A stretch of 64,000 bases of DNA, from positions 349,969 to 413,968 of the forward strand of contig VMGB01000001.1 in assembly GCA_007376295.1 (NCBI GenBank), read 5' to 3'. The notes beneath the pieces were generated by a model that was not told where the DNA came from, ran no database searches, and saw only the letters and a list, made by a program, of their open reading frames with translations. Position 1 is the first letter of the stretch; each line of letters starts with the position of its first letter. This document shows positions 4,827 to 63,119 of the stretch, one piece after another. The position numbers and the translations under genes were made by a program. This DNA comes from Parcubacteria group bacterium Gr01-1014_13. Its GTDB lineage: Bacteria; Patescibacteriota; Patescibacteriia; Magasanikbacterales; GWA2-37-8.

Positions 4827-4887
4827 AATTTTTTCGTAATCTATATTATATTATAACATAGATACAAAAAAACCTAAATCTCCGCGC

Positions 4888-5895: not shown

Positions 5896-5910
5896 AAATA
5901 AAAGTGGTAA

Positions 5911-8834: not shown

Positions 8835-9206
8835 TTAGCCTATACGCGCTTCCCCGCTATATGTGGGAATAACGTATTTACCTACCACGGCTGATTTGGC
8901 TAATTCAAGAGCGGCTGTTTGATCAAAATTTTTAGGCAAAGCTACTGCCGGTATTTTTAAACTATATGCCAGCGTATTTACTGTTGTCACTGCCAACCGG
9001 GAAGCTGTAAACCGTCCTGCGCCCACAACTACACCTAAGTACTTAATATCTTTTCGGGTTAGCTTCAAACTTGATAGTAATTTATCCAAAAAAATTAATA
9101 CATCTCTATTGTCCTTTGTTTCAAAAATTCGTTGAATAAATTTGTTATCCAACGAAAAATCAAAGATTACTTTGCCTTCTTCTGTATTATCAACAATCAA
9201 AAACAT
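8835..9206 (-). CDS. tsaB: TsaB/YeaZ-like protein (short form)
   Basis: 123 aa. N-terminal YeaZ core (LIVDNTEE...LGVVVGAGRFTASRLAVTTVNTLAYSL). Shorter than canonical TsaB. Confidence 0.45.
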   Translation of the reverse strand: MFLIVDNTEEGKVIFDFSLDNKFIQRIFETKDNRDVLIFLDKLLSSLKLTRKDIKYLGVVVGAGRFTASRLAVTTVNTLAYSLKIPAVALPKNFDQTAALELAKSAVVGKYVIPTYSGEARIG

Positions 9207-9224
9207 ACGTTTTTTTGATAACTA

Positions 9225-9833: not shown

Positions 9834-9877
9834 CTAAAGATCTATGTATATTAATGAAGTCTTAGTCCTTGTTTATT

Positions 9878-9906
9878 TTTACATTTTAAGGCCAGTATAG
9901 TATAAT
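9878..9906 (+). promoter_or_regulatory. sigma70-type promoter for the 9947 gene (TTTACA-17-TATAAT)
   Basis: TTTACA at 9878-9883, a 17-nt spacer, and TATAAT at 9901-9906, 40 nt upstream of the ATG. Confidence 0.5.
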
Positions 9907-9946
9907 TATAATGACTTAAAAAGTCAAAATCAAGCTAAACAATCCC

Positions 9947-43909: not shown

Positions 43910-46201
43910 TTATATTAAGATGTTTTTCATCCATTTATAGGAACGAGCTAATCCGTCTTGTAAACTGATCGATGGGTTATAGCCCACCATCGACTTGGCT
44001 TTGGACAAATCCGGACAGCGTCTGGAAGGTTCGTCTTGAGGGTAATTATCAGGATAATTAACTAAGTTTATTTCAACTTTTTTGTCTGGTACAACAGTTA
44101 CAAAAATTTCGGCTAGTGATTTCATATTAATTTCCGGACCATCGTTGCCAATATTAAACACTTCACCATTTTTGTCGGAAAGCAAAACTTTAAAGAAACC
44201 GATGATGGCGTCGGTAACATAACAAAATGTCCGTGTCTGATTTCCTTTATCGTGGACGGTTAGTGGCTTGCCTTCAATGGCCTGGCTTAAAAATGTTGGT
44301 ACGACTCTGTAGTCTTTAGCGCTCATCCCTGGACCATAGACATTAAAAGGACGGACAAATTTAACAGGAACTTGGTGTGTTTGGTAATAAGCCATGCACA
44401 AAGTTTCACCAAGACGCTTGGATTCATCATAGCAAGATCGTGGGCCGGTGGAAGAAACATTGCCCTTGTATGTCTCCGGAGTAGGAATAAACTTTGGATC
44501 CGGATCTCCGTAAATTTCACTGGAACTAAAATATAATACGCTGGTTACATTTTTCGCCAAAGCCAGCTTTAACATGTTATTTAAACCTAAAACTGTTCCT
44601 TCTATAGTTTCGATTGGGTATTTCTTGTAATAAACAGGTGAAGCAATGCCGGCGGCAGAAACAATATAATCAATCGGCATATCCAGAGAAATTGGCTCAC
44701 AGATGTTGTGCTGTTTAAACACAATATATTCGCTGTTCACTTCTTTGAGAAGATTGTTTTTCTTTCCGACAATATGATTGTCGAGCGAAAGTACTCGGCA
44801 AGGTGTTTTAAAATATTTTTTATTTAACAAGTCTATCGTCGCTGTTAGGTAGCTGCCGACAAATCCGGATCCGCCCGTAATCAAAACAGTTTTACCTTCG
44901 AGCGCACCCGCCACTTTCTCTATCCCTTTGGCAATAACATTTAAATCTTCTTCCACTACCCCACTAACAACTTGGGCAAATGGTACGGGGATAATAAAAT
45001 TCTCGAAATCAGAACATTTCTTAATAATAGAATCGGCAAAATTCCAAGCTAAAATTAGGATATAATCCGGAGGATTTTCTTTCAATTCAGTAGCGGCTTT
45101 TACCGGAATATGCGTACCCGGAGAATATAGCCCTTGTTTCCACACGCTATCATCAACAATATAATCCAAAGTTTCCGGTCCGATATTAAAGTAATTCAAC
45201 AAAGTACTGCCTTTTGCCGGAGCGCCATAACCAATAATTTTTTTGCCTTTAGATTTTAAGTCGCGCAAAAGTTCCAGCAAACGAGTTTTATTTTCACTAA
45301 TTTTGCCTTGAAAATTTAGAAAGGTTTCTATATCAGTCATCTTTCTTTCGTTTTCATGAGCGATAAATTTTTCTATGTTTGGCGATACAGTATGCTTCCC
45401 GCCTTTTCTCTGCACAAAGACACGCAGAGATCCACCGTGAGTATCTGTTTTTTCAACATCAAATACCTGCATTCCCAAACGATCAAATAAAGTACTGATT
45501 GTTTTTACAGTAAAATAAGAAAGGTGTTCATGATAAATAGTGTCAAATAAATTTTTCTCGATTAAATCCAATAAATAGTATGCTTCGATAACAAAAACAC
45601 CATCATCAGCCAATAAAGTTTTTACTCCTTCCACCACAGAATCCAAATCGTCTATGTGCGGAAAAACGCTGGTGGCTGTCATCAGAGATGCTTTGCCCTT
45701 TTCTTGCGCTATTTTACCAGCCACTTCCGGAGTAAAATATGCCGCCATTGTTTCTATACCATTTTCGGTTGCTCTCGCCGCAATATTTGCAGCCGGATCA
45801 ACGCCCATTATCTTTATACCCATTTCTTTATATGGACGCAGTAAAATTCCATCATTGCTGCCAATATCAACCACCAATGAATTGCTATCTAAAGCAAATC
45901 GCTGAGCCATTTCACTGGCAAAAGATTTGAAATGGGCCACAAAAACTGGTGAAGTGGATGAGCTATAGACATAATTACCAAAAAGAAGATCTGGAGATAC
46001 TACGTCTGTGAGCTGAACAAATGAACAGTCCTTACAAAAAGACAGCTCCAGCGGAAAGCTGGGCTCTGGTTTGTCTAGGTCTTCTGGTTTTAAGAAAGCA
46101 TTGGCCGGAGGCGTGCTTCCCAAACTTAATACTTTGGCTAAATTTGTTCCTTTACAGACCCTACAGTCATTTTTTGTTACACAGAGATCACCAAGAGACA
46201 T
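43910..46201 (-). CDS. fusion protein: TylCIII-like NDP-sugar C-methyltransferase + UXS/ArnA-like SDR (decarboxylase/4-ketoreductase family)
   Basis: N-terminal Cys4 zinc ribbon (CRVCKG...CKDCS), SAM motif VVDIGSNDGILL and a C-methyltransferase C-domain (residues ~1-430). The C-terminal ~320 aa carry TGGSGFVGS and the UXS-type CYDESKRLGETLC motif. Confidence 0.7.
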   Translation of the reverse strand: MSLGDLCVTKNDCRVCKGTNLAKVLSLGSTPPANAFLKPEDLDKPEPSFPLELSFCKDCSFVQLTDVVSPDLLFGNYVYSSSTSPVFVAHFKSFASEMAQRFALDSNSLVVDIGSNDGILLRPYKEMGIKIMGVDPAANIAARATENGIETMAAYFTPEVAGKIAQEKGKASLMTATSVFPHIDDLDSVVEGVKTLLADDGVFVIEAYYLLDLIEKNLFDTIYHEHLSYFTVKTISTLFDRLGMQVFDVEKTDTHGGSLRVFVQRKGGKHTVSPNIEKFIAHENERKMTDIETFLNFQGKISENKTRLLELLRDLKSKGKKIIGYGAPAKGSTLLNYFNIGPETLDYIVDDSVWKQGLYSPGTHIPVKAATELKENPPDYILILAWNFADSIIKKCSDFENFIIPVPFAQVVSGVVEEDLNVIAKGIEKVAGALEGKTVLITGGSGFVGSYLTATIDLLNKKYFKTPCRVLSLDNHIVGKKNNLLKEVNSEYIVFKQHNICEPISLDMPIDYIVSAAGIASPVYYKKYPIETIEGTVLGLNNMLKLALAKNVTSVLYFSSSEIYGDPDPKFIPTPETYKGNVSSTGPRSCYDESKRLGETLCMAYYQTHQVPVKFVRPFNVYGPGMSAKDYRVVPTFLSQAIEGKPLTVHDKGNQTRTFCYVTDAIIGFFKVLLSDKNGEVFNIGNDGPEINMKSLAEIFVTVVPDKKVEINLVNYPDNYPQDEPSRRCPDLSKAKSMVGYNPSISLQDGLARSYKWMKNILI

Positions 46202-46209
46202 ATTTTAAT

Positions 46210-46605
46210 TTATATAAGCTTCACACGAACAGTATCTTGTTCATAATCACCCTGACTTCTGGATTTTAAAGCAAAAACGAAACAAGTTGTATCTTCCAAA
46301 AACTTCATGGCATGAGCTACCATTGGTCGAGAAAAAACCATATCACCAGCTTTAACAATCTCTTTTTCCATCTTGGTTAAATCTGGGACACCATCAACTA
46401 GAGGTGCTTCATAATACTCCATGCTTCCGGTGAGTAAATAAACATGATGCCCGTCTTCTTTGTGGTAATGATTAGCGCGAATAGCACCCGGCTTAGAAGT
46501 CATCATTAGCATACTTTTAATAGTTGTCTGGCCATCATCGAGCAATTTGGTGATTCCACCTCTGTCATCAACAAATTCTGGAGCAATATTTCTTACGATT
46601 TGCAT
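46210..46605 (-). CDS. small cupin, WxcM/FdtA-like (NDP-4-keto-sugar 3,4-ketoisomerase family)
   Basis: 131 aa single cupin barrel with an HYHKEDGHH His cluster. Size and context fit the FdtA/WxcM N-domain family rather than RmlC. Confidence 0.5.
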   Translation of the reverse strand: MQIVRNIAPEFVDDRGGITKLLDDGQTTIKSMLMMTSKPGAIRANHYHKEDGHHVYLLTGSMEYYEAPLVDGVPDLTKMEKEIVKAGDMVFSRPMVAHAMKFLEDTTCFVFALKSRSQGDYEQDTVRVKLI

Positions 46606-46739: not shown

Positions 46740-48272
46740 ATGTCGAGACTACAACCAAAAATTCTTTTGGTTTACCCGCCTAACCAGCTGATGGCTATTG
46801 AAATGCCCCGGCCGGACGGTTCGCTCGGCCCATTGTACCTCAGCGGCGCTCTTCGCGACGCAGGGTTTGATGTTGATCTACTGGACGCTTCTGTCGGTAC
46901 AAACGAAGATAAGCTCAGTGATACGTTCCACAACCGAGTTCTCTTGCCGAACGGTCTAACCCGTATCGGCATGACCCCGGATCGCCTGCGGGAATACTTC
47001 GCCAAAGGCAACTTTGATATCGTAGGTATTAGCAGTAACTTCACCCCCCAGACCAAAATGGCTCTGGAGGTGGCAGGCATTGCTAAAGAAGTAAACCCCG
47101 AAACTCTAGTTATTGCGGGTGGTGTCAATGCCCGCGCACTTTCGGATCGTTTCCTAGCGAGTCGTTTGGTGGACGTGGTCATCCTCACCGAAGGTGAAAA
47201 AATCATCGTCGACCTGGCTCGTGCCTGGCAACAAAACACGTCGTTTGACAATGTAAATGGTATTAAATACTTGCGCACGGGATTCCCGGTGACTAGGCCA
47301 GTAACTCCGGAATTAATCTCGGATAATCTGGACAGTCTACCGATTCCAGCCTGGGATCTTCTACCACATGCCAAATACGACGAAATCAATAGTCCGCATG
47401 GTAGTATCATTAGCAGTCAGAAGCGGCGTTACGCCCCTATCATGACCTCGCGCGGCTGTCCGTTCCGCTGCGCATACTGCCACATTAGTGAAGAAAAAGA
47501 GGCCGGCTCCTTCACAGGCGATATCGGCTCATTGCGACTCAAATCGATTGATCGCGTTATGGAGGAACTAAAAAAATTACTCGCGCTTGGAGTAACCCAC
47601 CTCTATATCGAAGACGACAGTCTTCTCGCCAAAAAAGCTCGCATCAAAGATCTTTTTCATCGCCTTACCGGCCTTGGACTGAAGATTAGCGGTGTGAACG
47701 GCGTAAATCTAGTCCACTTTGGTATCCCGACTACAAACGGACGGCTAAAACCAGACGTTGGGTATCTGGAAATCCTAAAGGGTGCTGGATTTGATGAGAT
47801 TGTCTTCCCGGTAGAATCCGGAAATCAACGGATTCTTGATAAATACGCTACGTCTAAACTGCCTCTGGATAAACTTGATGTCATCCAACTCGTGCGCGAT
47901 GCGGTGGAAGTCGGAATTACCTGTCCAGTCAATATGATGGTTGGGTTCCCCGACGAAACTAAAGCCGAGATGAATGAGAGTGTTGAGCTGGCAAAGAAAC
48001 TCATCGATGCTGGTGCTCGATACGTAACGTTCTTTATTCCTATTCCGTTCCCCGGAAGCAAGCTATACCGTATGGCTATCGACGGGGGCCACTTGTCAGC
48101 TGATTTCGATCCGGACACGATGAATTGGAAAAATGCTGTCATGCAAAATACGACGGTGCCACCGGAGGAAGTGGTGGAATTCCGCGATTGGGCGTGGGAA
48201 ACAGTAAATAGCGAAGACTATAAGAAGAAACGTAAAGAAAGAGAAATTGGCGATCAGCGCTTTGCAAAATAA
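46740..48272 (+). CDS. B12-binding radical SAM enzyme (class B, cobalamin-dependent radical SAM methylase family)
   Basis: 510 aa with an N-terminal B12-binding-like Rossmann domain and a CxxxCxxC cluster motif (SRGCPFRCAYCH). The ORF is clearly GC-enriched (~50%) relative to flanking genes. Confidence 0.85.
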   Translation: MSRLQPKILLVYPPNQLMAIEMPRPDGSLGPLYLSGALRDAGFDVDLLDASVGTNEDKLSDTFHNRVLLPNGLTRIGMTPDRLREYFAKGNFDIVGISSNFTPQTKMALEVAGIAKEVNPETLVIAGGVNARALSDRFLASRLVDVVILTEGEKIIVDLARAWQQNTSFDNVNGIKYLRTGFPVTRPVTPELISDNLDSLPIPAWDLLPHAKYDEINSPHGSIISSQKRRYAPIMTSRGCPFRCAYCHISEEKEAGSFTGDIGSLRLKSIDRVMEELKKLLALGVTHLYIEDDSLLAKKARIKDLFHRLTGLGLKISGVNGVNLVHFGIPTTNGRLKPDVGYLEILKGAGFDEIVFPVESGNQRILDKYATSKLPLDKLDVIQLVRDAVEVGITCPVNMMVGFPDETKAEMNESVELAKKLIDAGARYVTFFIPIPFPGSKLYRMAIDGGHLSADFDPDTMNWKNAVMQNTTVPPEEVVEFRDWAWETVNSEDYKKKRKEREIGDQRFAK

Positions 48273-49892: not shown

Positions 49893-50429
49893 TTAATTGA
49901 TAATTTCCAAAATAGAAAGTAAATCTTGTATTCGTGAGTCTGGTTCTAAATGATCATTACGGCCATCAGAGACAATCACAGACCGAACCCCGGCAGCTCT
50001 GGCAGCCAGAAGATCATTATCCGTGTCACCTATCATATATGATGATGGCAAATGAATATTCCATTTTTTTGCCGCATCCAGTAGCATGCCTGGGAGTGGT
50101 TTTTTGCAGAGACAGCCGTCATTACGACGATGAAAGCAGATAAAAATATCATCAAATGAAAGATTTTTTACCTCAGCCATTATGCGCTCGTGTTGTTCCT
50201 GGGGTAATTTACCATATGCTATATCCGGTTGGTTTGTAACTAGGATACGAAGATATCCTAGCTTACCAACAGCTTCCAATACTTCCTTAATCCCTGACTT
50301 GAAACGGAATTCACTGTGATGATGTGGCGCAGTAAAACGAACCTTCTTTTCTCCAACAAAAAAATTTTCGCCCCGATCTATAACTTCATTCACAACTCCA
50401 TCGCGGTCAAAAAAGACAGCCTTTACCAT
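49893..50429 (-). CDS. gmhB: D-glycero-D-manno-heptose 1,7-bisphosphate phosphatase (HAD-IIIA)
   Basis: FFDRDGVVN, NQPDIAYG, and a CxC zinc motif (CFHRRNDGCLCKKP). Confidence 0.75.
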   Translation of the reverse strand: MVKAVFFDRDGVVNEVIDRGENFFVGEKKVRFTAPHHHSEFRFKSGIKEVLEAVGKLGYLRILVTNQPDIAYGKLPQEQHERIMAEVKNLSFDDIFICFHRRNDGCLCKKPLPGMLLDAAKKWNIHLPSSYMIGDTDNDLLAARAAGVRSVIVSDGRNDHLEPDSRIQDLLSILEIIN

Positions 50430-50435
50430 AATATT

Positions 50436-51020
50436 TTAATAACCACTTTGCTGTTTTAACAAATTTATCAATAAATGGTTAACTACTAATTGATAATCTT
50501 CAGTGTGAGGAGTTACCATGGATTCTTCGATTTTTGGCACAACTAAACAAGCGTCGGCAACCTGAGCAGCGACACCAGTCTCCCTGCCAACCACAGCCAG
50601 AATTCTTGCACCCACAACTTTGGCATATTCCATAGCCTTGACTAAATTTCCAGAAATATTTTGAGTTCCTCCGTTAACAGAGAAAATAAATAGGCAGTCT
50701 TTAGCAGTAAGATTATGCATTTCCAGTTGACGTTTAAAAACAGAATCCCAGCCTTCGTCGTTGGCTAACGCGCTAAACAAGCCCACGTTATCGGTAAGAC
50801 AAAAAGTAGAGATATTGGCAATTTTATTAAAGTCGTTGGTAGCGTGGGAAGCCGAAGCTCCTCCTCCACCTATACCCAAAAAGAAAACTCTGCCTTTGAG
50901 TTCGCGTGTAATAGATAAAATATCAGCCATTTTTTCCAAACGTTCTCGACTGCACTCATTGGCAATTTGAGCTGTTCTTTTTAGGTACTGATCTATAAAA
51001 TTGTGCTTGTCCATAACCAT
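50436..51020 (-). CDS. gmhA: phosphoheptose isomerase (SIS domain)
   Basis: RVFFLGIGGGGASASHATNDF and SVNGGT. Confidence 0.8.
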   Translation of the reverse strand: MVMDKHNFIDQYLKRTAQIANECSRERLEKMADILSITRELKGRVFFLGIGGGGASASHATNDFNKIANISTFCLTDNVGLFSALANDEGWDSVFKRQLEMHNLTAKDCLFIFSVNGGTQNISGNLVKAMEYAKVVGARILAVVGRETGVAAQVADACLVVPKIEESMVTPHTEDYQLVVNHLLINLLKQQSGY

Positions 51021-51115
51021 GAAAATTAAAAAAATATCAAAAAAACTGACCCCCTTAATTAATACTAACGTTACCTTTTTTTGCCAAGAATGTCAATAAT
51101 CGACCTGCTCTGTGC

Positions 51116-52111
51116 CTAGTCAAAATCAACCATTGTCTTTGCCCCTTCTTTTTCAAATCTAAAGGGCATTTCTTTCAAACCGTTGGTTTTCATCGCTTCA
51201 CGCACGCTTTTTCTCTCTTTATCTCCAGGACAATAAAATACCAAAAATCCACCGCCGCCGGCTCCCATAATTTTGCCACCCAAAGACCCATTTTCTTTGG
51301 CCAAAGCATAAAGCCTGTCAATATTTGGATCAGACATTTTTGTAGACATTGTTTTTTTGATTCGCCAATGCTCATCCATTAATCTACCAAAATTATCCAA
51401 ATTACCACCTTGAATAGAATTTTTAATTTCCATTCCAATCTCTTTAATCTGTAATAGCGATTTAGTCACATCACTTTCTTTTTTCTCAGCCGCAGCGCTC
51501 TGCTCGCCCAAAATTACCATAGCACTTCGAGAAATACCCGTATAAAATAATAGTAACTTATTTTGCAAATCTTCTACTGTTTCACGAGCAATTGCCGCAT
51601 CAGATACCTGCACGGCTCCATTTTTATCAATATTCATTATCGTAAAACCGCCATAGGCTGCCAAATATTGGTCCTGCTTGCCCACAGGCTTATGTAGTAA
51701 GTCAATTTCGATATGACAAGCTAGTTCTGCCAGTTCTTGAACTCCGGAACCCCTACGGGTTAATGTCTGCAATCCTTTTAAAAGTCCAACCAAATAAGAA
51801 CCAGACGAACCCATCCCTGTACCTGCCGGCACATCGGCCGTGGAAGCGATTTCGATTTGGTCTTTAATGCCATAATATTCCAAAGCAGCCCGAGCCAAAT
51901 CATGCTCCAGTTGCGCGGTATTTTCTACAATCTCAATACGAGAATATTTTACACGAACAAGCGAATCCAAAATCGGTCGATTGATACTTATATACATGTA
52001 CTTATCAATAGCGGCACTAAATACAAAACCGCCATGCTGTTTATAAAAAGCAGGCAAATCCGTACCGCCTCCGCCAAGCGGGATCCTAAATGGGGTGCGA
52101 GTTAAAATCAC
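51116..52111 (-). CDS. hddA: GHMP-family sugar kinase, D-glycero-D-manno-heptose 7-phosphate kinase-like
   Basis: GHMP motifs (PLGGGGTDLP; PAGTGMGSSGS). Embedded between gmhA and a heptose-1-P nucleotidyltransferase. Confidence 0.7.
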   Translation of the reverse strand: MILTRTPFRIPLGGGGTDLPAFYKQHGGFVFSAAIDKYMYISINRPILDSLVRVKYSRIEIVENTAQLEHDLARAALEYYGIKDQIEIASTADVPAGTGMGSSGSYLVGLLKGLQTLTRRGSGVQELAELACHIEIDLLHKPVGKQDQYLAAYGGFTIMNIDKNGAVQVSDAAIARETVEDLQNKLLLFYTGISRSAMVILGEQSAAAEKKESDVTKSLLQIKEIGMEIKNSIQGGNLDNFGRLMDEHWRIKKTMSTKMSDPNIDRLYALAKENGSLGGKIMGAGGGGFLVFYCPGDKERKSVREAMKTNGLKEMPFRFEKEGAKTMVDFD

Positions 52112-52115
52112 AATT

Positions 52116-52832
52116 TTATTTAATATTAGTAAAAAAATCTTGGGTCCGATGATAACCTTCTATGTTATCACAACCAAAAACATACTCTTCTTGGCTAAAT
52201 TGGTACGTGCCAATTTTAATATTGTCCCTCAAAAGCAATGGAAAAACATCCCAACCGAAATCATATTTCTGCCCCTCGGGAATATATTTAAAAATCTCCG
52301 GTTCAAGAACATATGATCCCGCGCTCACCAAACTGCTCATTTCATCGGCATTTTCCATGAACTCTTTGACGCTTCTATCAGAATTAAGCAAAACCCGACC
52401 CCGACCGATACCACTATTTTTATTTTTAGTCATGTCGTGAATAGCCATCGTACAAATAGTTTCATTTTTCTGATGAGCTAACAAAAGATTTTCTAAATTA
52501 CAATTGGTAACATTATCACCATACAAAAGAAAAAATGGTTCGGTAAATTCTTTTTCCACTTTCTTCACCGCCCCTGCGCTACCTAAGAGCTCTTCTTCTC
52601 TGGAATAAACAATGGACACGCCGAATTTTGAGCCATCTTGAAAATAATCCATTATTTGATCGGCTTTATAGCAAACATTGATAATTATTTCCCGCACGCC
52701 ATATTGGCGCGCCAAATCAATATTGTGCTCTAAAATGGGCTTGCCGTTAATCTCAACCAAAACCTTAGGAATATTATCAGTAAGCGGACGGAGTCTAGTA
52801 CCCTCTCCGGCCGCCAAAATCATGGCTTTCAT
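52116..52832 (-). CDS. hddC: D-glycero-D-manno-heptose 1-phosphate guanylyltransferase-like nucleotidyltransferase
   Basis: ILAAGEGTRLRPLTDNIPK, 238 aa with no LbH tail. Context with gmhA, hddA and gmhB. Confidence 0.65.
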   Translation of the reverse strand: MKAMILAAGEGTRLRPLTDNIPKVLVEINGKPILEHNIDLARQYGVREIIINVCYKADQIMDYFQDGSKFGVSIVYSREEELLGSAGAVKKVEKEFTEPFFLLYGDNVTNCNLENLLLAHQKNETICTMAIHDMTKNKNSGIGRGRVLLNSDRSVKEFMENADEMSSLVSAGSYVLEPEIFKYIPEGQKYDFGWDVFPLLLRDNIKIGTYQFSQEEYVFGCDNIEGYHRTQDFFTNIK

Positions 52833-56485: not shown

Positions 56486-57820
56486 CTACACTACAATGAA
56501 ATCTTTTTTCTTAATTAAGAAAAAAGCCCAAATTAGGTTCCACAAGAAATTGGCTACTAAACTAATTATATAAGTATAGGCTACTCCCATAATACCGTAT
56601 CGAGGAATAAATACTAGATTACAAATAACAAGGAGTACTAGCTGAAAAAATGCGCCTATAGCCATAATATGAGTTTTGTTGAAAATAGTAACGGTCATCG
56701 AAAATGGAATGGCTAAAATATTTAATAAAAAACCATAAGCCAATATCAAATAAACAGGCATCGCCGCCACATATTTCTGGCCAAAAAGAAAATTTATCAG
56801 GTATTGAGATGGGTATATAAGAAGCGCAATTCCAATTGTACCGACAAGTACCCATTTAAATACTCGCTTAACAAAGGCAATAAGCTCTGTTTTGTTTACC
56901 AAAGCGCTTATCTTCGGCATTAAAACGGAACTGATAGAACCATAAACCACCGGAAAAATTTGAATTAACTGCCAGGCGACGGTAAAAACTGCCACCTGTT
57001 CTAGCCCAAGATAATGACTGATCATTACTTGATCTATTTTACCGCCGGCAATAGCCATAAGCGATGAAATGGTAAGCCAAAAACTAAACTTAGCCAATTG
57101 TGAATGCAGATTACTTTTGACTTCTTGATCTACCTCAACTTTTCGGAATTTATCTGGGAACACTCCGTAATTTACTAAAAATAAAATCCAGGGCACAAAA
57201 ATATAAACGGATAAATACACGAATAAATTTCTAACGCCCGCCAACGCCAAAATTATAACTATTAACAGGCGCAAAAATCCTTTTAGGGACTGGACTGAAG
57301 CCTGATAAAAAAATCTTTGATTGGACTGCAGATAAGTAGCCAAAAAACCAAGCAAGATAACGCCGCCAATACCCAGAAAAGAATAAGCCAAGTAAGGGGC
57401 GATTTTGGCTTGGCCAAATAAATATTTAGCCAAAGGATATGATAAAACTATGCCGCCAAGCGTAAGTATCCAAGTTAACGCTACTCGCCAACGCCATACC
57501 GTTTTTAGTAATTGTTTTAACTTATCTGTTTGATTAGTAGCGATGTAATATGGAGCAAATCGCAGTAGGCCCATGTTTAAACCAAAATCAGATATCTCGG
57601 CCATTGTGCTTAACGCTAAAACCGAAAGCGAAAAAATACCAAAAAACTCCTGGCTTAAAGCTCTGGCCAAAATAATATTAAGGACAAGCAAAGACACGCC
57701 GTTTATCAATGACCCGACAGTCACAAAAGCGGTCTGGTGTAAGGCCCTTTTTTTAAAAATAGATTGTATACGCTCTTGAATTTGCATAATTTCCACTCCA
57801 AAAAATTTAGGCCTTAACAA
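56486..57820 (-). CDS. wzx: Wzx-like oligosaccharide flippase (MOP superfamily polysaccharide biosynthesis protein)
   Basis: 444 aa, ~12-14 TM helices, typical PST-family layout. Confidence 0.7.
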   Translation of the reverse strand: MLRPKFFGVEIMQIQERIQSIFKKRALHQTAFVTVGSLINGVSLLVLNIILARALSQEFFGIFSLSVLALSTMAEISDFGLNMGLLRFAPYYIATNQTDKLKQLLKTVWRWRVALTWILTLGGIVLSYPLAKYLFGQAKIAPYLAYSFLGIGGVILLGFLATYLQSNQRFFYQASVQSLKGFLRLLIVIILALAGVRNLFVYLSVYIFVPWILFLVNYGVFPDKFRKVEVDQEVKSNLHSQLAKFSFWLTISSLMAIAGGKIDQVMISHYLGLEQVAVFTVAWQLIQIFPVVYGSISSVLMPKISALVNKTELIAFVKRVFKWVLVGTIGIALLIYPSQYLINFLFGQKYVAAMPVYLILAYGFLLNILAIPFSMTVTIFNKTHIMAIGAFFQLVLLVICNLVFIPRYGIMGVAYTYIISLVANFLWNLIWAFFLIKKKDFIVV

Positions 57821-58595
57821 ACCAAAAACATCCGCAACCGTAAACTTGTTTCTCCACTAAAGATTTGTCCGCATTGGAGATTAATTTTCCCTCATCGGTT
57901 AGTAATGTAAATTCCCGGACTTGGAGATTGGAAAAGGCATTTACAACCTGGTCGTAAGAAAAAATTCTCTGAGAATTAAACTGGACATTAGGTTTTCCTA
58001 CTGGTACTACAATTAATAAACTACCTCCTACCGCCAACACTCTTTGCAATTCTTTCATGGCCTTGATGTCGCCAACAGGGTCTATCGGATCACCATATCT
58101 ACCCAAGCCGATATGCTCCAGCGTGTGCATGCAGGAAAGCGATTTAAGGCTGTTGTCTGCAAAAGGCAACTTTAACAAATCAGCGGATTCTGAGGAAAAA
58201 TTACTCAAAGTTATGTCCGCAGGTCTATAATCGTAAAATTTTACAGGGATAAAGGCTGAAACTAGCGTACTGAAATTAAGCGTGGAACTAATATCAGTAT
58301 GAAATTCAGGATTAATTTCCTTAAGCTTTCTGGCAGCCCAAGCCGGATGATAAGTATAATGACGATCAAAATCTTGCGTACTTGATTTTTCGTGTAAAAT
58401 AGGATAAAAATTTTTGGCCGACAAAACAAACCGGTTGTCCCCGACTTTGACCGATGCCTCTTTAAACTGTTTCCAATCTTTTAAGAATCCAATATACCTA
58501 AATTTGTTTAATACACGATCTTTCATCCTATTTGCCATCACCAATAATCCCAAAGGGAAAGTTTTCTTTAGAAATTGTTTAAGTTTTGGATTCAT
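57807..58595 (-). CDS. DUF268-like methyltransferase-fold protein
   Basis: LSCMHTLEHIGLGRYGDPIDP...GGSLLIVVP; a SAM-MTase-like fold family recurrent in polysaccharide loci. Confidence 0.45.
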   Translation of the reverse strand: MNPKLKQFLKKTFPLGLLVMANRMKDRVLNKFRYIGFLKDWKQFKEASVKVGDNRFVLSAKNFYPILHEKSSTQDFDRHYTYHPAWAARKLKEINPEFHTDISSTLNFSTLVSAFIPVKFYDYRPADITLSNFSSESADLLKLPFADNSLKSLSCMHTLEHIGLGRYGDPIDPVGDIKAMKELQRVLAVGGSLLIVVPVGKPNVQFNSQRIFSYDQVVNAFSNLQVREFTLLTDEGKLISNADKSLVEKQVYGCGCFWFVKA

Positions 58596-58605: not shown

Positions 58606-59376
58606 TTAATCTTTAATTATTTCGCTGGAAGATGCGCCGATACCCGATACTCCGAGCCTGACCAGCCTGTGTACTTTTTTTCTGGGGATATATTTTGCTA
58701 ATGTATTTTCGATCGGATACGCTACCATTGTTAATGGAATCCCTTTAAGAAGGGCGCTCTTCCAGATACTATACGCGGATTTACGAAAACCATACAAACG
58801 CGTACAAATATAATCTTCTTTAATATACTGTAATACGAACTCTCCTTCTTCCCAATCATGCAAATTAAATTCTTCATTTAAAAAATATCGTCCGCTTATT
58901 TTAAAATAAAAATCGGCAGAAAATTTAAACTTCTTCATCGCGTAGTATAACATCATTATTTCACCCAAACTTTTCTGCTTACTATCACAGGACCAACGCA
59001 CTAATTTTTTATTTCCCACATAAATGTACTGATCAACTTTTTTCTCCAGTTCAAAAGGTAGATTTTCTTGCAGACCGCTTTCCACCAAAATTATTTTTGC
59101 GCCCGGTACTCGGCTATATATAGAATCAATCGTTTGCTGAGTTTGTTTGGCGCGTTCTTCGGGGCTAAAAATAGAGCGCGGTCCATCGTACTGAATTAAT
59201 TTGCCTTGTTTTGGATAAATTACCGAAGTAATAATAAAACAATACTCCACCATTTCTCTACCTGCCGGTTGTTTCTCAAACAAACCGCCGATCATTACTA
59301 CCAGCTGAAATGGCCATACAAAAAAAATTCTATAGACTTGGCGTAATATAAATGATATTAAATTTTTTAATGTCAT
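58606..59376 (-). CDS. hypothetical protein (glycan-locus associated)
   Basis: 256 aa, N-terminal hydrophobic segment, no recognised domain. Confidence 0.35.
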   Translation of the reverse strand: MTLKNLISFILRQVYRIFFVWPFQLVVMIGGLFEKQPAGREMVEYCFIITSVIYPKQGKLIQYDGPRSIFSPEERAKQTQQTIDSIYSRVPGAKIILVESGLQENLPFELEKKVDQYIYVGNKKLVRWSCDSKQKSLGEIMMLYYAMKKFKFSADFYFKISGRYFLNEEFNLHDWEEGEFVLQYIKEDYICTRLYGFRKSAYSIWKSALLKGIPLTMVAYPIENTLAKYIPRKKVHRLVRLGVSGIGASSSEIIKD

Positions 59377-59377
59377 A

Positions 59378-60070
59378 TCATTTTTTCAAATTATCCATAA
59401 AACCTAAAACATCCTTGGCTTCCGGAAGATCATCTTCTGTATTTTCAATGTCTTGATGGTTAACTGCGCCCTCAAATTCCACCTCGACCCCTATATGTTT
59501 AGCTACGCTCTCTAAAGTTATGGCATTTTTCCCTCCTAACTCCACAATACCTTGACGGTCCAAATTTGATGCTAGCCAAGATACGCAAAAAGAGAGCGGG
59601 ATAAAAGAATAACGGCTTCTCTTATCTACAAAAACTTTTTTACCCTCCAGCATATCAACCAGTACCCCTTTCTTCATATTGTCGCCATAGAGCGCTCCGA
59701 GACGAACAATTAAATTATTGCCAAAATCACACAGCTTTTCTGCCGCAGCCTTATGTCTGCCATAAATAGTATCTGTCTGGCAGCGGGCGGAAACGGTGCT
59801 TATCTGTACAAACTTTTTAAATTGCCAACCGTACAACAGGTCAGCTGTTTTTTTTACTGTTTCCGTAAAATCTTCTTCGGGATGATTATTTGCCCAAAAA
59901 CGACCGGACGGCATAGCGCAATTTATAATTATATCGAACTTTTGCGCTTGTGTGGCGAGATAATTCTCTTTGGTTACTCCTACAACCGAATACTTTGAAG
60001 AATCAAGCAACTCTTTATATAGCGCGCTTCCAACATATCCTTTTGAGCCTATGACGGCTATGGAAAGCAT
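59378..60070 (-). CDS. short-form NAD(P)-dependent sugar-nucleotide reductase (RmlD-like SDR)
   Basis: IGSKGYVGS Rossmann and YGRHK (YxxxK), 230 aa. Confidence 0.55.
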   Translation of the reverse strand: MLSIAVIGSKGYVGSALYKELLDSSKYSVVGVTKENYLATQAQKFDIIINCAMPSGRFWANNHPEEDFTETVKKTADLLYGWQFKKFVQISTVSARCQTDTIYGRHKAAAEKLCDFGNNLIVRLGALYGDNMKKGVLVDMLEGKKVFVDKRSRYSFIPLSFCVSWLASNLDRQGIVELGGKNAITLESVAKHIGVEVEFEGAVNHQDIENTEDDLPEAKDVLGFMDNLKK

Positions 60071-60072
60071 AA

Positions 60073-60522
60073 TTACTTTATCATTGATTGTTTAAATTTC
60101 CCGGGTTCCAACAAAGTCCAGTCGGTTATATTTTTTTTGAGCTGCTCATGTAGAGGAATTTTAAGACGGTGTGTATCACTTTCGTATTTATCGCCGCCGC
60201 GAGGACCATTAACAAAACTTAAGAAAGCACACTTTTCAAGGGCAATAAATTCATGGGCTTCTCCTTTGTCCCAAGTTGTAAAATCATTTTGAGAAATGAC
60301 GGTTTTTTCAATTTTTTTACTACCCTGTTTTCTGCTATAAGCTACCATTTTACCAAAAAGCATAAAATCTGACTGCTGAGAGAGTTTATGAAAATGATTT
60401 CCCCGCACCGCTCCTTTATTTGAATAAATGATAACGCAGTGCTCATAAGGCTCCTTAACAAAAACATCCATAATTGACCCGCGCACATCTTTAAAATCTA
60501 TTTTTCTTTTAACTCGTTTCAT
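60073..60522 (-). CDS. small cupin, WxcM/FdtA-like
   Basis: 149 aa, His cluster GNHFHK. Paralogous in layout to 46210-46605. Confidence 0.5.
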   Translation of the reverse strand: MKRVKRKIDFKDVRGSIMDVFVKEPYEHCVIIYSNKGAVRGNHFHKLSQQSDFMLFGKMVAYSRKQGSKKIEKTVISQNDFTTWDKGEAHEFIALEKCAFLSFVNGPRGGDKYESDTHRLKIPLHEQLKKNITDWTLLEPGKFKQSMIK

Positions 60523-60540
60523 AAATAAGAATTATATTAA

Positions 60541-61749
60541 TTACGATTCTATAACATGAGGAGTAATAAATTGAAGATGGGGAAATTTTGGCGAAATTTT
60601 AGCTTTGAGAAAATCAGCGATGTTCCAGGCAAGAATAAGAGCGTGAGAAACATCCTTATCTATCGTGTCGTCTGAAAAAATTGGTAAATGCGAACCAGGA
60701 GTATATTTTCCAATTTTAAGAGGGGAAGCATCAGTTGCAAAATCTATAAGCGTAGCATCAATGCCACAGTAATTTAAAAGGGTATTGCCCTTGGCCGCTG
60801 CGCCAATCGCAACAATTTTTCCGCCGCTCTCCCGCGCTTTTACCAATTCTTTAAGCAAATTAATTTTGCAATTTTTTACTTCTTCTGCAAACTTTCTCCA
60901 CTCTGCCTGGTCATACAGGCCAAACTTTTCTTCCAAAGCAATTTGCTTCGCTACCAATTCACTTTCTTGGCCGTATCCCACAAAAATCCTTATCGATCCG
61001 CTCATATAATTATTTTCTTCGAGGTGCGTAATCGAGAGTCCAAATTTTTTAAAAAAAGGCACGAGCGGTTTTATAGCGATATAAGATACGTGTTCTAAAT
61101 AAATAACATCAAAGTGTTTTTTTCTTATGATTTCCAAAAAATATGGCAACTCAATTATAAAACTACCCTCTTTGTCCAAAATGGAAATAACGTTTTCCAT
61201 AAATTCATCAAGGGGAGAAATATGATTAAAGGCATTGGTAATGGTGATAACCTTCGCCTTCCCTCTTTTTAATATTTTTTCGGCCGAAGAAGCGTTAAAA
61301 AAATCATTTATTGTTGGAATACCATTTTTTTCGGCCAGCGCGGCAATATTGTGTGAAGGGTCGACCCCCTGAACTTCTGCTCCGAGATCTTTAAACGCGC
61401 CCAGAAGCGTTCCGATATTACTGCCTATATCAACCACCAAATCACCATTTTTTACACCAGCTCTTTTTACTACTTCTTGAGCCATCTCCTGGAAGTGTTG
61501 TATTGAAATTTTAGAATTACCAGAATCATAACTATAATCGTTTTCTTGATAGCGGACTTCGGCGGGCACAACAAAACTATTCATCCCGTGTCCACAGTCT
61601 TGGCAAAGAAGTACACAAAGAGGGTATCGTCTCTCCGGTTCGTCTAGTTGACTTTCTTTCAAAAAAAAGTCCGCCAAAGGGTGAAATCCTAAATCAAGGA
61701 CTTTGGTTAGATTTTTTGAAGCACATAAATGGCATTGCGAAACTTTCAT
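60541..61749 (-). CDS. TylCIII-like NDP-sugar C-methyltransferase (stand-alone)
   Basis: Cys4 ribbon (CHLCAS...CQDCGH), VVDIGSNIGTLL and a C-methyltransferase C-domain. Paralogue of the N-half of 43910-46201. Confidence 0.7.
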   Translation of the reverse strand: MKVSQCHLCASKNLTKVLDLGFHPLADFFLKESQLDEPERRYPLCVLLCQDCGHGMNSFVVPAEVRYQENDYSYDSGNSKISIQHFQEMAQEVVKRAGVKNGDLVVDIGSNIGTLLGAFKDLGAEVQGVDPSHNIAALAEKNGIPTINDFFNASSAEKILKRGKAKVITITNAFNHISPLDEFMENVISILDKEGSFIIELPYFLEIIRKKHFDVIYLEHVSYIAIKPLVPFFKKFGLSITHLEENNYMSGSIRIFVGYGQESELVAKQIALEEKFGLYDQAEWRKFAEEVKNCKINLLKELVKARESGGKIVAIGAAAKGNTLLNYCGIDATLIDFATDASPLKIGKYTPGSHLPIFSDDTIDKDVSHALILAWNIADFLKAKISPKFPHLQFITPHVIES

Positions 61750-61754
61750 AAGAT

Positions 61755-62144
61755 CTATAAAAATATTTTATCATCTACATATGGCCCGTCCTTGAAGGCA
61801 TAAATCAAAGCGTTCTTTGTTATTTTTATTTCATGCGCTCCATCTACTATCAACAAACACTGGCCAGATGAAACATTCTTTTTGGCGATAATTTTTCCTT
61901 TCCTGTCAAAAATACTAGCTTCTATAGCGCCTTTCATAACCACAATTGCTTCCTGGGGCTGTTTGGTAACTTTACGAATTTTTTTATGCACATGCTTTAC
62001 CACAACATGGCCTTGCTTTCGCTTCATTAAAAGCAACTGCAGGGGCCACGAAGGGTCAGTTATTGGAAATGTGCCTTCTTTTGCGGAAGAAAGGTCAATA
62101 ACCAGGGCAAATATTTTGTTTCCTGACTTAATTTTAGTTACCAT
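61755..62144 (-). CDS. small cupin-like protein
   Basis: 129 aa beta-rich with HVVVKHVHKK. Between the GMD-like dehydratase and the C-methyltransferase. Confidence 0.4.
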   Translation of the reverse strand: MVTKIKSGNKIFALVIDLSSAKEGTFPITDPSWPLQLLLMKRKQGHVVVKHVHKKIRKVTKQPQEAIVVMKGAIEASIFDRKGKIIAKKNVSSGQCLLIVDGAHEIKITKNALIYAFKDGPYVDDKIFL

Positions 62145-63119
62145 TTAGGTGTTATCATTAAAATGTTCTAAATCATAATCCATCATGGCGTGTACTATTT
62201 CATTGAATTTCATTTTTGGCTCCCATCCCAGTTTTTTTATTTTTGAAGGGTCACCAAGAAGCAAAGGGACTTCATTCGGTCTTTTATACTTGTCATCTAT
62301 CTTTACATAATCTTCGGAGTTAAGGCCTACATAGGAAAAAGCTTCTTCAACAAACTCTTTTATGGTATGAGTTTCTCCTGTTGCAACTACGAACACATCC
62401 GGTTTCTCCTGTTGCATTATAAGATATATAGCTTCCACAAATTCCGGAGACCAACCCCAATCGCGTTTAGCATCCAGATTTCCTAATACCAAAGAATCCT
62501 GCGTGCCATTTTTAATTCGCGCCACTGCTTTAGTGATTTTTTTGGTCACGAACGTGCCGCCTCTTCTTGGACTCTCATGATTAAATAATATGCCGGTAGT
62601 AGCGAATAATCCGTAACCATCACGATACTGTCTGGTTAGATGGTAGGCGGCTAGTTTTGCTACTCCATACGGACTCTGGGGCATCATGGGGGTATTTTCA
62701 TTGTATGGGGCAGGCACTCCGGGCACACCAAACATTTCCGAGCTTGATGCCTGATAAAACTTTGTTTGAGGAGAAAATTTTCTAATTGCTTCAAGGACGT
62801 TTAAAACACCGACTGCATTTGTTTGAAGCGTATACTCTGGAACTTCAAATGACACTTTTACTTGAGACATTGCTCCAATATTATAGAACTCATCCGGCTT
62901 GATATCTGAAATTAGTCCGGCCGTAGCAAGAGCATCTGTAAGATCGCCATAATGTATATGAATGTTTGGATTGGAGGTAATAAGATGATCGATTCTGCCT
63001 GATGCAAAAGAAGAGATGCGGCGCATTATTCCGTGCACTTCATATCCCTTTGAAAGAAGTAATTCCGCCAAGTACGAACCATCCTGTCCCGTAATTCCGC
63101 TAATAATCGCTTTTTTCAT
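62145..63119 (-). CDS. gmd: GDP-mannose 4,6-dehydratase family (could act on GDP-heptose)
   Basis: ISGITGQDGSYLAELLLSKGYEVHGI...HYGDLTD; canonical Gmd N-terminus and length. Confidence 0.85.
   Translation of the reverse strand: MKKAIISGITGQDGSYLAELLLSKGYEVHGIMRRISSFASGRIDHLITSNPNIHIHYGDLTDALATAGLISDIKPDEFYNIGAMSQVKVSFEVPEYTLQTNAVGVLNVLEAIRKFSPQTKFYQASSSEMFGVPGVPAPYNENTPMMPQSPYGVAKLAAYHLTRQYRDGYGLFATTGILFNHESPRRGGTFVTKKITKAVARIKNGTQDSLVLGNLDAKRDWGWSPEFVEAIYLIMQQEKPDVFVVATGETHTIKEFVEEAFSYVGLNSEDYVKIDDKYKRPNEVPLLLGDPSKIKKLGWEPKMKFNEIVHAMMDYDLEHFNDNT

Follow-up and report, generated by a model that had tools for sequence, protein, structure and literature searches.

Which sugar is made by a compact set of nucleotide-sugar genes in a Parcubacteria (CPR) MAG, and from which precursor? 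The genes lie at positions 58606-63119 of the window, by which we mean the whole 64,000-nt stretch of DNA analysed. A sequence-only reading had seen in them a branched-deoxysugar module that may act on GDP-heptose, in which case it would yield C-methylated 6-deoxyheptoses. Our own answer, which we hold to be reasonably probable, is that the cassette makes a GDP-linked, C-3-methyl-branched 6-deoxyhexose from GDP-mannose, destined for a surface glycan.

Gene order and conservation of the cassette

Apart from the number of cupins, ORF calls and profile searches confirmed the gene content, minus-strand order and family assignments of the earlier reading. The features are as follows.

62145-63119, minus strand: Gmd-like dehydratase, 324 aa (PF16363, TIGR01472)
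61755-62144, minus strand: cupinA, 129 aa, weakly WbuC/DUF6016-like, otherwise unclassified
60541-61749, minus strand: C-methyltransferase (C-MT), 402 aa, TylC3/TcaB9-type (PF08421, PF13489, PF08484)
60073-60522, minus strand: cupinB, 149 aa, CapF-C-terminal/FdtA/RmlC-like (PF14667, AF2 fold)
59378-60070, minus strand: short SDR, 230 aa, putative 4-ketoreductase (PF01370)
58606-59376, minus strand: hypothetical conserved protein, 256 aa, no family match
57807-58595, minus strand: DUF268-type SAM methyltransferase (PF03269, 60.6 bits; PF08241, 21.6 bits)
56486-57820, minus strand: Wzx/MOP-type flippase (PF01943, 60 bits; PF13440, 46 bits)
49893-52832: putative heptose genes, every assignment below its NCBIfam cutoff
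46210-46605, minus strand: third cupin, 131 aa, cupinB paralogue (Cupin_2, 27.3 bits)
43910-46201: C-MT::SDR fusion (UXS-like), 763 aa, the window's first C-MT

The intergenic gaps from Gmd through DUF268 measure 0, 5, 18, 2, 1 and 10 nt, and the DUF268 gene, just beyond the edge of 58606-63119, overlaps the next gene, the flippase, by 14 nt. Given these 0-18 nt gaps and the overlap, the layout is operon-like, and the best explanation is that the cassette is embedded within a long surface-glycan operon running in one direction. Three small cupins had been counted in 58606-63119 and described as paralogues of a single operon; two are encoded there, while the third lies 12 kb off beside the C-MT::SDR fusion, in a separate module set apart from the cassette by a plus-strand radical-SAM gene.

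The cassette was also found in 14 other CPR species genomes. CupinA directly follows Gmd in all 14 loci, and does so too where the C-MT is absent; the C-MT comes next in 12, cupinB and the short SDR are each present in 10, and all five genes occur together in nine. Since the same gene order is found in many other genomes, the cassette is not a product of chance: it is real, tightly packed and kept across many CPR bacteria. Two loci (L014 and L015) retain cupinA but have neither cupinB nor the short SDR, an arrangement that sits uneasily with our preferred pathway. In L003 and L004, Gmd, cupinA and an RmlD-like SDR occur without a C-MT, beside a gene of the GT11 fucosyltransferase family, and in L007 the full cassette is followed by a GT11 gene. 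In Kaiserbacteria a flippase likewise comes after the cassette.

The methyltransferase, the cupins and the reductase

The SAM-dependent C-MT combines PF08421, PF13489 and PF08484 and has a zinc-finger N-domain. It scored 252.6 bits against the D-mycarose 3-C-methyltransferase 4rv9, which we take to be MtmC, and 172-183 bits against TcaB9 and the Sugar 3-C-methyl transferase entries 5t64/5t6b. The alignment keeps the four zinc-binding Cys and TcaB9 positions Y76, N177, H181, Y222, E224 and H225, so that both family and catalytic residues can be read from the sequence, which identifies the enzyme as a TylC3/TcaB9-type NDP-hexose 3-C-methyltransferase. To our knowledge, all characterised TylC3-type enzymes act on dTDP sugars, which counts against the GDP-sugar substrate that we propose.

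CupinB scored 24 bits against PF14667, the CapF C-terminal type cupin (curated cutoff 28.7). In Pfam searches with 31 members of its family, PF14667 was matched by all 31 and was the best class, FdtA was matched by seven and RmlC by none; neither cupinA nor cupinB reaches RmlC models (TIGR01221, 14 bits versus a cutoff of 155.75). With the AF2 model (pLDDT 93.8), the top Foldseek matches were RmlC, CapF, FdtA/QdtA, DdahB/MlghB and ChmJ (E about 1e-7 to 1e-8); FdtA/QdtA gave the best target-normalised TM-scores (0.68-0.70), in a search that did not tell RmlC, CapF and FdtA apart. The family profile aligns with the CapF cupin domain (residues about 246-355), an RmlC homologue and QdtA, and its invariant residues are D12, R14, G15, R40, H43, H45, H90, R108, Y113, E114, D116 and T117. 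As modelled, cupinB folds like the epimerases and isomerases that act on NDP-4-keto sugars (RmlC, CapF, FdtA). In five of five distant loci from other phyla, a C-MT gene is immediately followed by a cupinB homologue, and the window's other C-MT, the 763-aa fusion, is likewise adjoined by a cupinB paralogue, the third cupin, which is 27% identical to cupinB (E 6e-11) and also has the family's invariant residues. We regard cupinB as a putative epimerase that would act at C3 and/or C5 in concert with the C-MT.

CupinA gave no meaningful match in the Pfam profile search, and its likeness to WbuC is weak (TIGR04366, 30.4 bits, under the cutoff of 42). Its AF2 model has a pLDDT of 80.8 and matches known folds weakly, with FdtA/FdtD at the top. 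H51, H53, E65 and H104 are invariant in its family, which hhalign related to the cupinB family (88.8% probability, E 2.5e-6); by these alignments the two cupins are distant paralogues with a common HxH...H motif. We consider cupinA a putative GDP-4-keto-6-deoxy-mannose epimerase. The HxH motifs pointed out earlier are thus present and invariant in both families, and the cupinB family and fold data uphold the view of these proteins as small, FdtA-sized relatives of nucleotide-sugar cupins, not regulators.

As had been suggested, the cupins, or one of them, might be 3,4-ketoisomerases of the FdtA type. The sugar would then pass to a 3-keto intermediate, methylation or reduction would take place at another carbon, and the product would be a rearranged deoxysugar, for instance one methylated at C2 (2-C-methyl) or C4 (4-C-methyl). 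The resemblance part of this suggestion stands: cupinB carries an FdtA-like RGxHxHK motif, is FdtA-sized and has its top TM-scores with FdtA/QdtA, seven of its 31 family members match Pfam FdtA, and in three distant loci the gene after the cupinB homologue encodes a DegT aminotransferase, much as the FdtB aminotransferase follows FdtA. The function itself we judge unlikely. A 3,4-ketoisomerase normally feeds an aminotransferase, and profile annotation of the module's genes found none. Moreover, the C-MT, with its catalytic residues kept, is nearest to C3-methyltransferases that require a 4-keto group, and 3,4-ketoisomerisation is chemically impossible on a C3-methylated sugar; the best HMM class of cupinB is the CapF type, tied to an epimerase domain, and cupinA is essentially unclassified.

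It is improbable, too, that one cupin stands off the main pathway, as a metal-binding accessory or scaffold for Gmd or the C-MT or as a WbuC-like relic: minimal chemistry requires one epimerase at most, cupinA matches solely the functionally undefined WbuC family, and that below threshold, and L014 and L015 have cupinA without cupinB, but both families keep invariant His/Glu/Arg/Tyr residues in orthologues 55-95% identical and in remoter relatives, the gene adjacency of both is strict across phyla, and in L003/L004 cupinA is the sole candidate epimerase between Gmd and the RmlD-like reductase. Against our preferred pathway it still counts that two cupins exceed what minimal chemistry calls for and that the fold assignment of cupinA is weak.

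The short SDR matched PF01370 at 37.6 bits and RmlD models weakly, and retains GxxGxxG and Ser-Tyr-Lys. It has 381 homologues of about 230 aa, and across the family GxxGxxG is nearly invariant and S91/S94, Y103 and K107 are invariant; this extended-SDR-like oxidoreductase is a putative 4-ketoreductase. The 256-aa hypothetical protein has no Pfam, NCBIfam or PDB sequence match. It has 909 cluster representatives at E<=1e-3, and in other organisms its domain is fused with hexapeptide acyltransferase or SAM methyltransferase domains; it is probably glycan-processing. Outside L001, a contig with the same module, it does not belong to the conserved cassette.

The substrate of the dehydratase

The first enzyme of the cassette matched PF16363 at 407 bits, and motifs GITGQDGS, SSSEMFG, YGVAK and NHESPRRG are legible in it. 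It passed the gmd equivalog model TIGR01472 (421.8 bits, cutoff 415) and scored 340-366 bits against solved GDP-mannose dehydratases versus 121 bits against the C. jejuni GDP-heptose 4,6-dehydratase 7us5. By these scores it is a Gmd of a short, ~324-aa subtype. Firm placement with strict Gmd enzymes had been named in advance as one half of the outcome that would refute the earlier reading, the other half concerning the cupins, and by its scores this is where the dehydratase falls.

The heptose proposal drew on genes placed 9 kb away. The distance from Gmd is indeed 9.3 kb (5.8 kb from the end of 58606-63119), and the set, comprising an HddC-like nucleotidyltransferase, an HddA-like GHMP kinase, GmhA-like SIS and GmhB-like HAD proteins and a transaldolase, occupies the same one-directional array; every assignment, however, lies under its NCBIfam cutoff. 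The cassette Gmds diverge as a subgroup whose scores lie at the equivalog threshold, orthologues reaching 405-421 bits, and in several genomes a canonical Gmd (577 bits) and Fcl lie within a few kb. With scores at the edge of the model (405-422 versus 415) and canonical Gmd/Fcl nearby, a shifted substrate preference is possible. Known heptose 4,6-dehydratases accept GDP-mannose too, so specificity in the superfamily can be loose. Against this, HddA, GmhA and GmhB homologues were found within 10 kb of none of the 14 orthologous CPR cassettes, and GT11, a GDP-fucose-type transferase family, adjoins the L007 cassette and the L003/L004 cluster. Because of the Gmd-like scores and the lack of heptose genes near the 14 cassettes, GDP-mannose, not GDP-heptose, is the likely substrate; the cassette is probably not a heptose pathway, and C-methylated 6-deoxyheptoses are a quite improbable product.

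Two of these observations sit less comfortably with GDP-mannose as precursor, namely the heptose genes within the same array and the borderline TIGR01472 scores. A bifunctional PGI/PMI in the window could supply mannose-6-P, but no clear mannose-1-P guanylyltransferase was found there; the assignment of the 238-aa nucleotidyltransferase encoded by 52116-52832 is equivocal, with sub-cutoff scores for man1P-GTase (131 bits) and HddC (105 bits).

Proposed pathway and known counterparts

Taken globally, the data support the logic proposed earlier, in which a GDP-4-keto-6-deoxy sugar is epimerised or isomerised, C-methylated and reduced after dehydration. In the hexose pathway that we favour, Gmd would convert GDP-D-mannose to GDP-4-keto-6-deoxy-D-mannose, and cupinA, as a GDP counterpart of RmlC, would epimerise C3 and/or C5 beside the 4-keto group. 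The C-MT would then transfer the SAM methyl to C3 via a C3-C4 enolate. CupinB, as its dedicated partner, would fix the exchangeable centre still left; the simplest choice is C5, acted on once the methyl group is in place, in the manner of TylK and EvaD. The 230-aa SDR would reduce the 4-keto group. Such a pathway would end in a GDP-6-deoxy-3-C-methylhexose akin to virenose or 3-C-methyl-fucose/rhamnose, the order of the three middle steps and the stereochemistry not being readable from sequence. The DUF268 enzyme may possibly O-methylate the sugar or glycan thereafter, the adjacent flippase would export the assembled lipid-linked glycan, and the neighbouring heptose genes would provide another residue of it.

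This type of deoxysugar chemistry is already known, and the cassette varies it. For virenose (6-deoxy-3-C-methylgulose) in Coxiella burnetii, the proposed GDP route comprises CBU_0689 (Gmd), CBU_0691 (TylCIII-like C-MT) and CBU_0688 (Fcl-like epimerase/reductase) (PMC3539893), in a pathway described as not fully characterised (PMC13252051). Both routes are proposals that pair Gmd with a TylC3-type 3-C-methyltransferase, after which a sugar derived from GDP-4-keto-6-deoxy-mannose is epimerised and reduced at C4, towards a 6-deoxy-3-C-methylhexose of a surface glycan. The proteobacterium is proposed to use one bifunctional GMER/Fcl-like SDR for both of these last steps, whereas the CPR bacterium has two small, separate cupins alongside a minimal SDR of 230 aa.

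Actinomycete dTDP pathways to branched sugars, such as mycarose (TylC3/TylK/TylC2) and nogalose (SnogG2/SnogF/SnogC), and those of TcaB9, KijD1 and MtmC, share the C-MT family and the logic of 4,6-dehydratase, cupin epimerase, C3-methyltransferase and 4-ketoreductase. They differ in carrier (dTDP there, probably GDP here) and in context, secondary metabolism as opposed to a primary cell-surface glycan. Their epimerases are 180-200-aa RmlC-type proteins while the cassette cupins are of about 130-150 aa with HxH, and RmlD-type enzymes exceed the cassette reductase by about 60 residues. For the CapF cupin domain, zinc binding and C3-epimerase activity on a UDP-4-keto sugar are reported; the cupinB family aligns over this domain of S. 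aureus Cap5F, yet the cassette cupins lack the SDR fusion and partner Gmd or the C-MT instead of FnlA/CapE-type enzymes.

In C. jejuni, GDP-6-deoxyheptoses arise through the DdahA/WcbK dehydratase, the cupin C3/C5 epimerases DdahB/MlghB and the reductases DdahC/MlghC (PMC10680097, PMC7949155). The use of a GDP-linked 4-keto-6-deoxy sugar, separate cupin epimerases and SDR C4-reductases is common to both systems, and DdahB and MlghB are structural neighbours of cupinB. The cassette dehydratase, in contrast, is Gmd-like and not DdahA-like (366 versus 121 bits), the orthologous cassettes are without heptose genes, and the heptose-modifying enzymes reviewed in PMC10680097, where the word 'methyl' is absent, include no C-methyltransferase. 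Finally, RmlB-RmlC-RmlD, the dTDP-L-rhamnose route, differs in carrier and configuration, and the cassette cupins fall short of its RmlC models, but the three-step logic is shared, and the Gmd-cupinA-RmlD-like SDR set of L003/L004 resembles a GDP version of it.

Gene layout and conservation of the cassette

The module between positions 58606 and 63119 consists of six minus-strand ORFs with intergenic gaps of 0 to 18 nt, and their order is the one the sequence-only reading had given. It sits in a one-directional block of glycan genes spanning roughly 64 to 48 kb of the window. CupinB has 100% identity to a protein of Parcubacteria group bacterium Gr01-1014_13, which places the window in a CPR/Patescibacteria MAG. 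The first five genes are referred to here as the cassette.

Genes of the module and the gene that comes after it
62145-63119, minus strand: Gmd-like dehydratase (Gmd), 324 aa
61755-62144, minus strand: cupinA, 129 aa
60541-61749, minus strand: C-methyltransferase (C-MT), 402 aa
60073-60522, minus strand: cupinB, 149 aa
59378-60070, minus strand: short SDR, 230 aa
58606-59376, minus strand: hypothetical protein, 256 aa
57807-58595, after the hypothetical-protein gene: DUF268 methyltransferase

The DUF268 gene is in turn followed, with a 14-nt overlap, by a gene for a Wzx-type flippase and then by GT2 glycosyltransferases. Three small cupins had been claimed for a single operon; two are found here, and the third (46210-46605, 131 aa) lies 12 kb off beside the first C-MT of the window. 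Once the cupin count is corrected, the module is real. A promoter and terminator scan returned 32 sites against a shuffled expectation of 28.1 +/- 4.2, which is not above chance, so that a promoter-like site at 63197-63170, upstream of Gmd, carries no weight as evidence.

The hypothetical protein of 256 aa has no sequence match in Pfam, NCBIfam or the PDB. It is one of a sizeable family that lacks annotation (909 cluster representatives at E<=1e-3). Elsewhere this domain occurs joined to a hexapeptide acyltransferase or SAM methyltransferase domain, or at the C-terminus of proteins of about 750 aa; only such fusions give a hint of a role in glycan modification.

To follow the cassette in other genomes, an alignment of cupinA was searched against one genome per GTDB species, which gave 19 loci, and their ORFs were then searched with the window proteins. 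The 14 CPR loci come from Magasanikbacteria, Kaiserbacteria, Nomurabacteria, Levyibacteriota and MAGs labelled Saccharibacteria or Patescibacteria. Gmd stands directly before cupinA in all 14; C-MT comes after cupinA in 12, cupinB and the short SDR are each present in 10, and nine loci hold all five genes. Independent look-ups returned the same gene order. Distant relatives of cupinA (26-32% identity) in Methanobacterium, Planctomycetota, Alphaproteobacteria and Actinomycetota are also found near Gmd-like genes.

Two of the loci from other genomes carry a trio that lacks the C-MT, namely Gmd (365 aa), cupinA and an RmlD-like SDR (176 bits), at 8907-11263 of L003 and 883-3239 of L004. This trio may make a GDP-6-deoxy-L-hexose by a split route like that of RmlBCD, and its resemblance to a GDP version of RmlB-RmlC-RmlD argues for cupinA epimerising the Gmd product. 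A gene of the GT11 fucosyltransferase family is divergent from the trio in L003, and in L007, another such locus, a GT11 gene comes after the full cassette.

The second cupin keeps different company. In five of five loci (L002, L009, L029, L030 and L031, with the gene at ~6001 or ~10001), which include Omnitrophota and Elusimicrobiota, a distant cupinB homologue (40-55% identity) begins no more than about 20 nt past a TylC3-type C-MT gene. Both C-MTs of the window also adjoin a cupinB-type gene, and we therefore regard cupinB-type cupins as regular partners of TylC3-type C-MTs. A DegT aminotransferase comes after the cupinB homologue in three of the five distant loci (L009, L030 and L031), which suggests 4-amino-3-C-methyl sugars there.

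The dehydratase and its substrate

The window Gmd matches PF16363 with 407 bits and passes the TIGR01472 Gmd equivalog by a narrow margin (421.8 bits against a cutoff of 415), while cassette Gmds of other genomes score 405-421 bits, right at that cutoff. Its translation shows the extended-SDR motifs GITGQDGS, SSSEMFG, YGVAK and NHESPRRG, which correspond, as in E. coli Gmd, to the GxxGxxG motif, the S/T-x-E dehydratase pair, the YxxxK motif and the sugar-nucleotide loop, respectively. In L008, a Kaiserbacteria locus, a canonical Gmd (577 bits, TIGR01472) and a GDP-fucose synthase (Fcl, 497 bits) occupy 4437-7179, and the divergent cassette Gmd (421 bits) lies at 9031-10011, about 4 kb from its canonical paralogue, so that a single locus holds two Gmd paralogues. 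Several other loci also contain a second Gmd-like ORF. Since the cassette Gmds score at the cutoff while the canonical L008 paralogue reaches 577 bits, the cassette enzyme is, as judged from sequence, a divergent and short Gmd subgroup, with Gmd by a wide margin its closest match among the enzymes compared.

GDP-heptose had been put forward as the substrate, and a plausible GDP-heptose set does lie downstream, 6-9 kb away (an HddC-like nucleotidyltransferase, an HddA-like GHMP kinase, GmhA-like and GmhB-like proteins and a transaldolase), although every one of these heptose-type genes scores under its curated cutoff. The dehydratase itself speaks against this substrate: it scores 325-366 bits with eleven solved GDP-mannose dehydratases from plants, humans, E. 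coli, Aquifex and Pseudomonas, and 121 bits with 7us5, the C. jejuni enzyme that was the sole heptose dehydratase compared. Moreover, HddA, GmhA or GmhB homologues occur within 10 kb of the orthologous cassette in none of the 14 CPR species loci. The proposal was thus not borne out, and we consider GDP-heptose quite improbable, keeping a small share of belief for it because the cassette Gmds form a divergent subgroup. More likely, the heptose genes of the window provide a different residue of the glycan to which the cassette contributes. The cassette Gmds are short and divergent, stand at the model threshold and coexist with canonical Gmd and Fcl in some genomes, so their specificity may have shifted. 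That they serve a new sugar class, with the two uncharacterised cupin families as its epimerases, we hold to be very unlikely; no such class is known to have been described.

The likely substrate is GDP-mannose. A gene for a bifunctional PGI/PMI at 23632-24696 (minus strand) could, judging by its family, provide mannose-6-P; no unambiguous mannose-1-P guanylyltransferase was found in the window.

Methyltransferase, putative reductase and the two cupin families

The C-MT presents a three-part architecture with all parts over cutoff: a zinc-binding N-domain (PF08421, 59.2 bits), a SAM methyltransferase domain (46.7 bits) and a C-terminal domain (PF08484, 127.2 bits). It scores 252.6 bits with the D-mycarose 3-C-methyltransferase 4rv9, and 172-183 bits with TcaB9 and the Sugar 3-C-methyl transferase entries 5t64/5t6b. 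Pairwise alignment to TcaB9 (3ndi) shows that the four zinc-binding cysteines (CxxC...CxxC) are kept, together with positions Y76, N177, H181, Y222, E224 and H225 (as YsY, NafnH and YlEH), the active-site residues of TcaB9. We infer GDP as its nucleotide only from the adjacent Gmd.

The putative reductase is of minimal size. Its 381 homologues are consistently about 230 aa long, so the short SDR is not a truncated gene, whereas a full-length RmlD-type reductase has about 285 aa. In an alignment of 18 sequences the Ser-Tyr-Lys triad (S91/S94, Y103 and K107) is invariant, and the NAD(P)-binding GxxGxxG motif (G8, G11 and G14) nearly so. The protein falls short of the RmlD models (TIGR01214, 15.3 vs 224 bits; PF04321, 19.8 vs 27 bits) and has no close relative among solved structures.

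The AF2 model of cupinB is confident (pLDDT 93.8), and Foldseek places it mainly among epimerases and isomerases that act on nucleotide-4-keto sugars. Its neighbours include the RmlC homologue 1wlt (E 2.3e-8), CapF (E 7.4e-8), many RmlCs, FdtA/QdtA (target-normalised TM 0.68-0.70), ChmJ, StrM and the GDP-heptose epimerases DdahB/MlghB, with a few artificial metalloproteins scattered among them; by fold, FdtA is about as similar to cupinB as RmlC and CapF are. Among 31 aligned family members (E<=0.01), all match PF14667, 21 match Cupin_2, 12 match Cupin_1, seven match FdtA, and none matches the RmlC Pfam family; the window protein scores 14 bits with the RmlC model TIGR01221 (cutoff 155.75). 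Residues 246-355 of CapF, its C-terminal cupin domain, align to the family profile with 28.8 bits; an RmlC homologue and QdtA align to it as well. Window cupinB itself is below the PF14667 gathering score (24.0 vs 28.7 bits), which together with the family-wide matches and the CapF alignment identifies it as a remote relative of PF14667 and not a curated member. It has no match to PF05523 (FdtA/QdtA/WxcM), found in those seven of its 31 relatives. Ketoisomerases (3,4-) of this type feed an aminotransferase; the cassette module contains none, but the homologues in L009, L030 and L031 have one beside them.

The RGNHFHK motif of cupinB is present and invariant, and residues D12, R14, G15, R40, H43, H45, H90, R108, Y113, E114, D116 and T117 are likewise invariant. 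The third cupin of the window, a paralogue with 27% identity, shares these residues. The cupinB profile also matches the cupin domains of oxalate decarboxylase (about 30 bits per domain), which we attribute to a generic metal-cupin motif. Only with the RmlC homologue, CapF and QdtA do the DxRG segment at the N-terminus and the YExDT segment at the C-terminus align; in addition, the top fold matches are mainly nucleotide-sugar enzymes, and the gene context is one of sugar tailoring.

For cupinA, no usable Pfam match and no RmlC-family match were obtained, its score with WbuC (TIGR04366) is under the cutoff (30.4 vs 42 bits), and searches of PDB chains by single sequence and by family profile gave nothing useful. 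WbuC appears in the searchable literature only as a gene beside resistance genes, with no function given. The AF2 model (pLDDT 80.8) renders the HxH segment poorly, and its Foldseek matches, led by FdtA/FdtD, are all at E>0.01 and TM<0.5. Residues H51, H53, E65 and H104 are nevertheless invariant. A profile-profile comparison with the cupinB family (88.8% probability, E 2.5e-6) aligns the HxH and (A)HE motifs, from which we conclude that the two families are distant paralogues. CupinA is essentially an uncharacterised family.

Proposed pathway, neighbouring modules and known systems

The pathway logic proposed beforehand (dehydrate, epimerise or isomerise, C-methylate, reduce) is supported. 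Gmd would convert GDP-mannose to GDP-4-keto-6-deoxy-mannose, and cupinA would then epimerise centres beside the 4-keto group. The C-MT would methylate C3 via an enolate, cupinB would set the remaining exchangeable centre, and the short SDR would finally reduce the 4-keto group, giving a virenose-like GDP-6-deoxy-3-C-methylhexose. CupinB would act at C5, since C3 is quaternary after methylation and only C5 still exchanges; such a step fits the precedent of TylK/EvaD in dTDP pathways. The families are assigned from the results, whereas substrate, step order and stereochemistry are what we infer.

The cassette C-MT is 38% identical to the C-MT domain of a 763-aa TylC3-type C-MT::SDR fusion at 43910-46605 (minus strand, coordinates including the directly preceding cupinB paralogue). 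The SDR domain of this fusion resembles UDP-glucuronate decarboxylase most closely (204 bits to human UXS1), and UDP-glucose dehydrogenase genes lie at 35423-36736 and 29472-30875. Together these suggest C-methylation of a UDP-4-keto-pentose to a branched pentose, a module that may be more unusual than the Gmd cassette. Between the two C-MT modules, a B12-binding radical-SAM protein (46740-48272, plus strand), the only plus-strand gene found from about 34.5 to 64 kb, could methylate the glycan further by radical chemistry.

An Rml-like set comprises a long-form RmlA-like nucleotidyltransferase (18799-19878, minus strand; 313 vs 320 bits), a weak RmlD-like SDR (24811-25659, minus strand) and a clear dTDP-glucose 4,6-dehydratase (25661-26662, minus strand; 451 bits). 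As no RmlC-family match was found among the window ORFs scanned, a non-canonical cupin may replace RmlC in this set. Further off, at 9947-12256 (plus strand), 7346-8830 (minus strand) and 5911-7335 (minus strand), lie large ORFs of 769 and 494 aa without a Pfam match, beside a DUF4012 protein.

Two pairing rules can be tested, Gmd with cupinA and TylC3-type C-MT with cupinB, the latter across several phyla, and they point to roles for two small cupin families that lack annotation and for a minimal SDR of 230 aa. With its small size and its spread over many CPR lineages, the cassette would lend itself to in vitro reconstitution as a way of defining how GDP-sugars are C-methylated. Its occurrence indicates that these bacteria, with their small genomes, spend resources on unusual surface sugars, which may be of importance in host attachment or phage evasion.

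Primary cell-surface glycans rarely contain C-methyl-branched sugars. Among described systems the nearest is the GDP route to virenose that has been proposed, but not proven, for Coxiella (PMC3539893); a 2026 preprint says of this pathway that it 'has not been fully characterized' (PMC13252051). Virenose of this Q-fever agent is the only GDP-linked C-methyl-branched example discussed in the searchable literature (PMC3539893, PMC13252051), where no other GDP-linked 6-deoxy-3-C-methyl sugar pathway was found; a Coxiella LPS genetics paper makes no mention of a C-MT or cupins. We read the cassette as a variation on known NDP-deoxysugar tailoring, valuable as a compact and widespread putative set for GDP-sugar C-methylation that brings together a minimal SDR and two cupin families without annotation.
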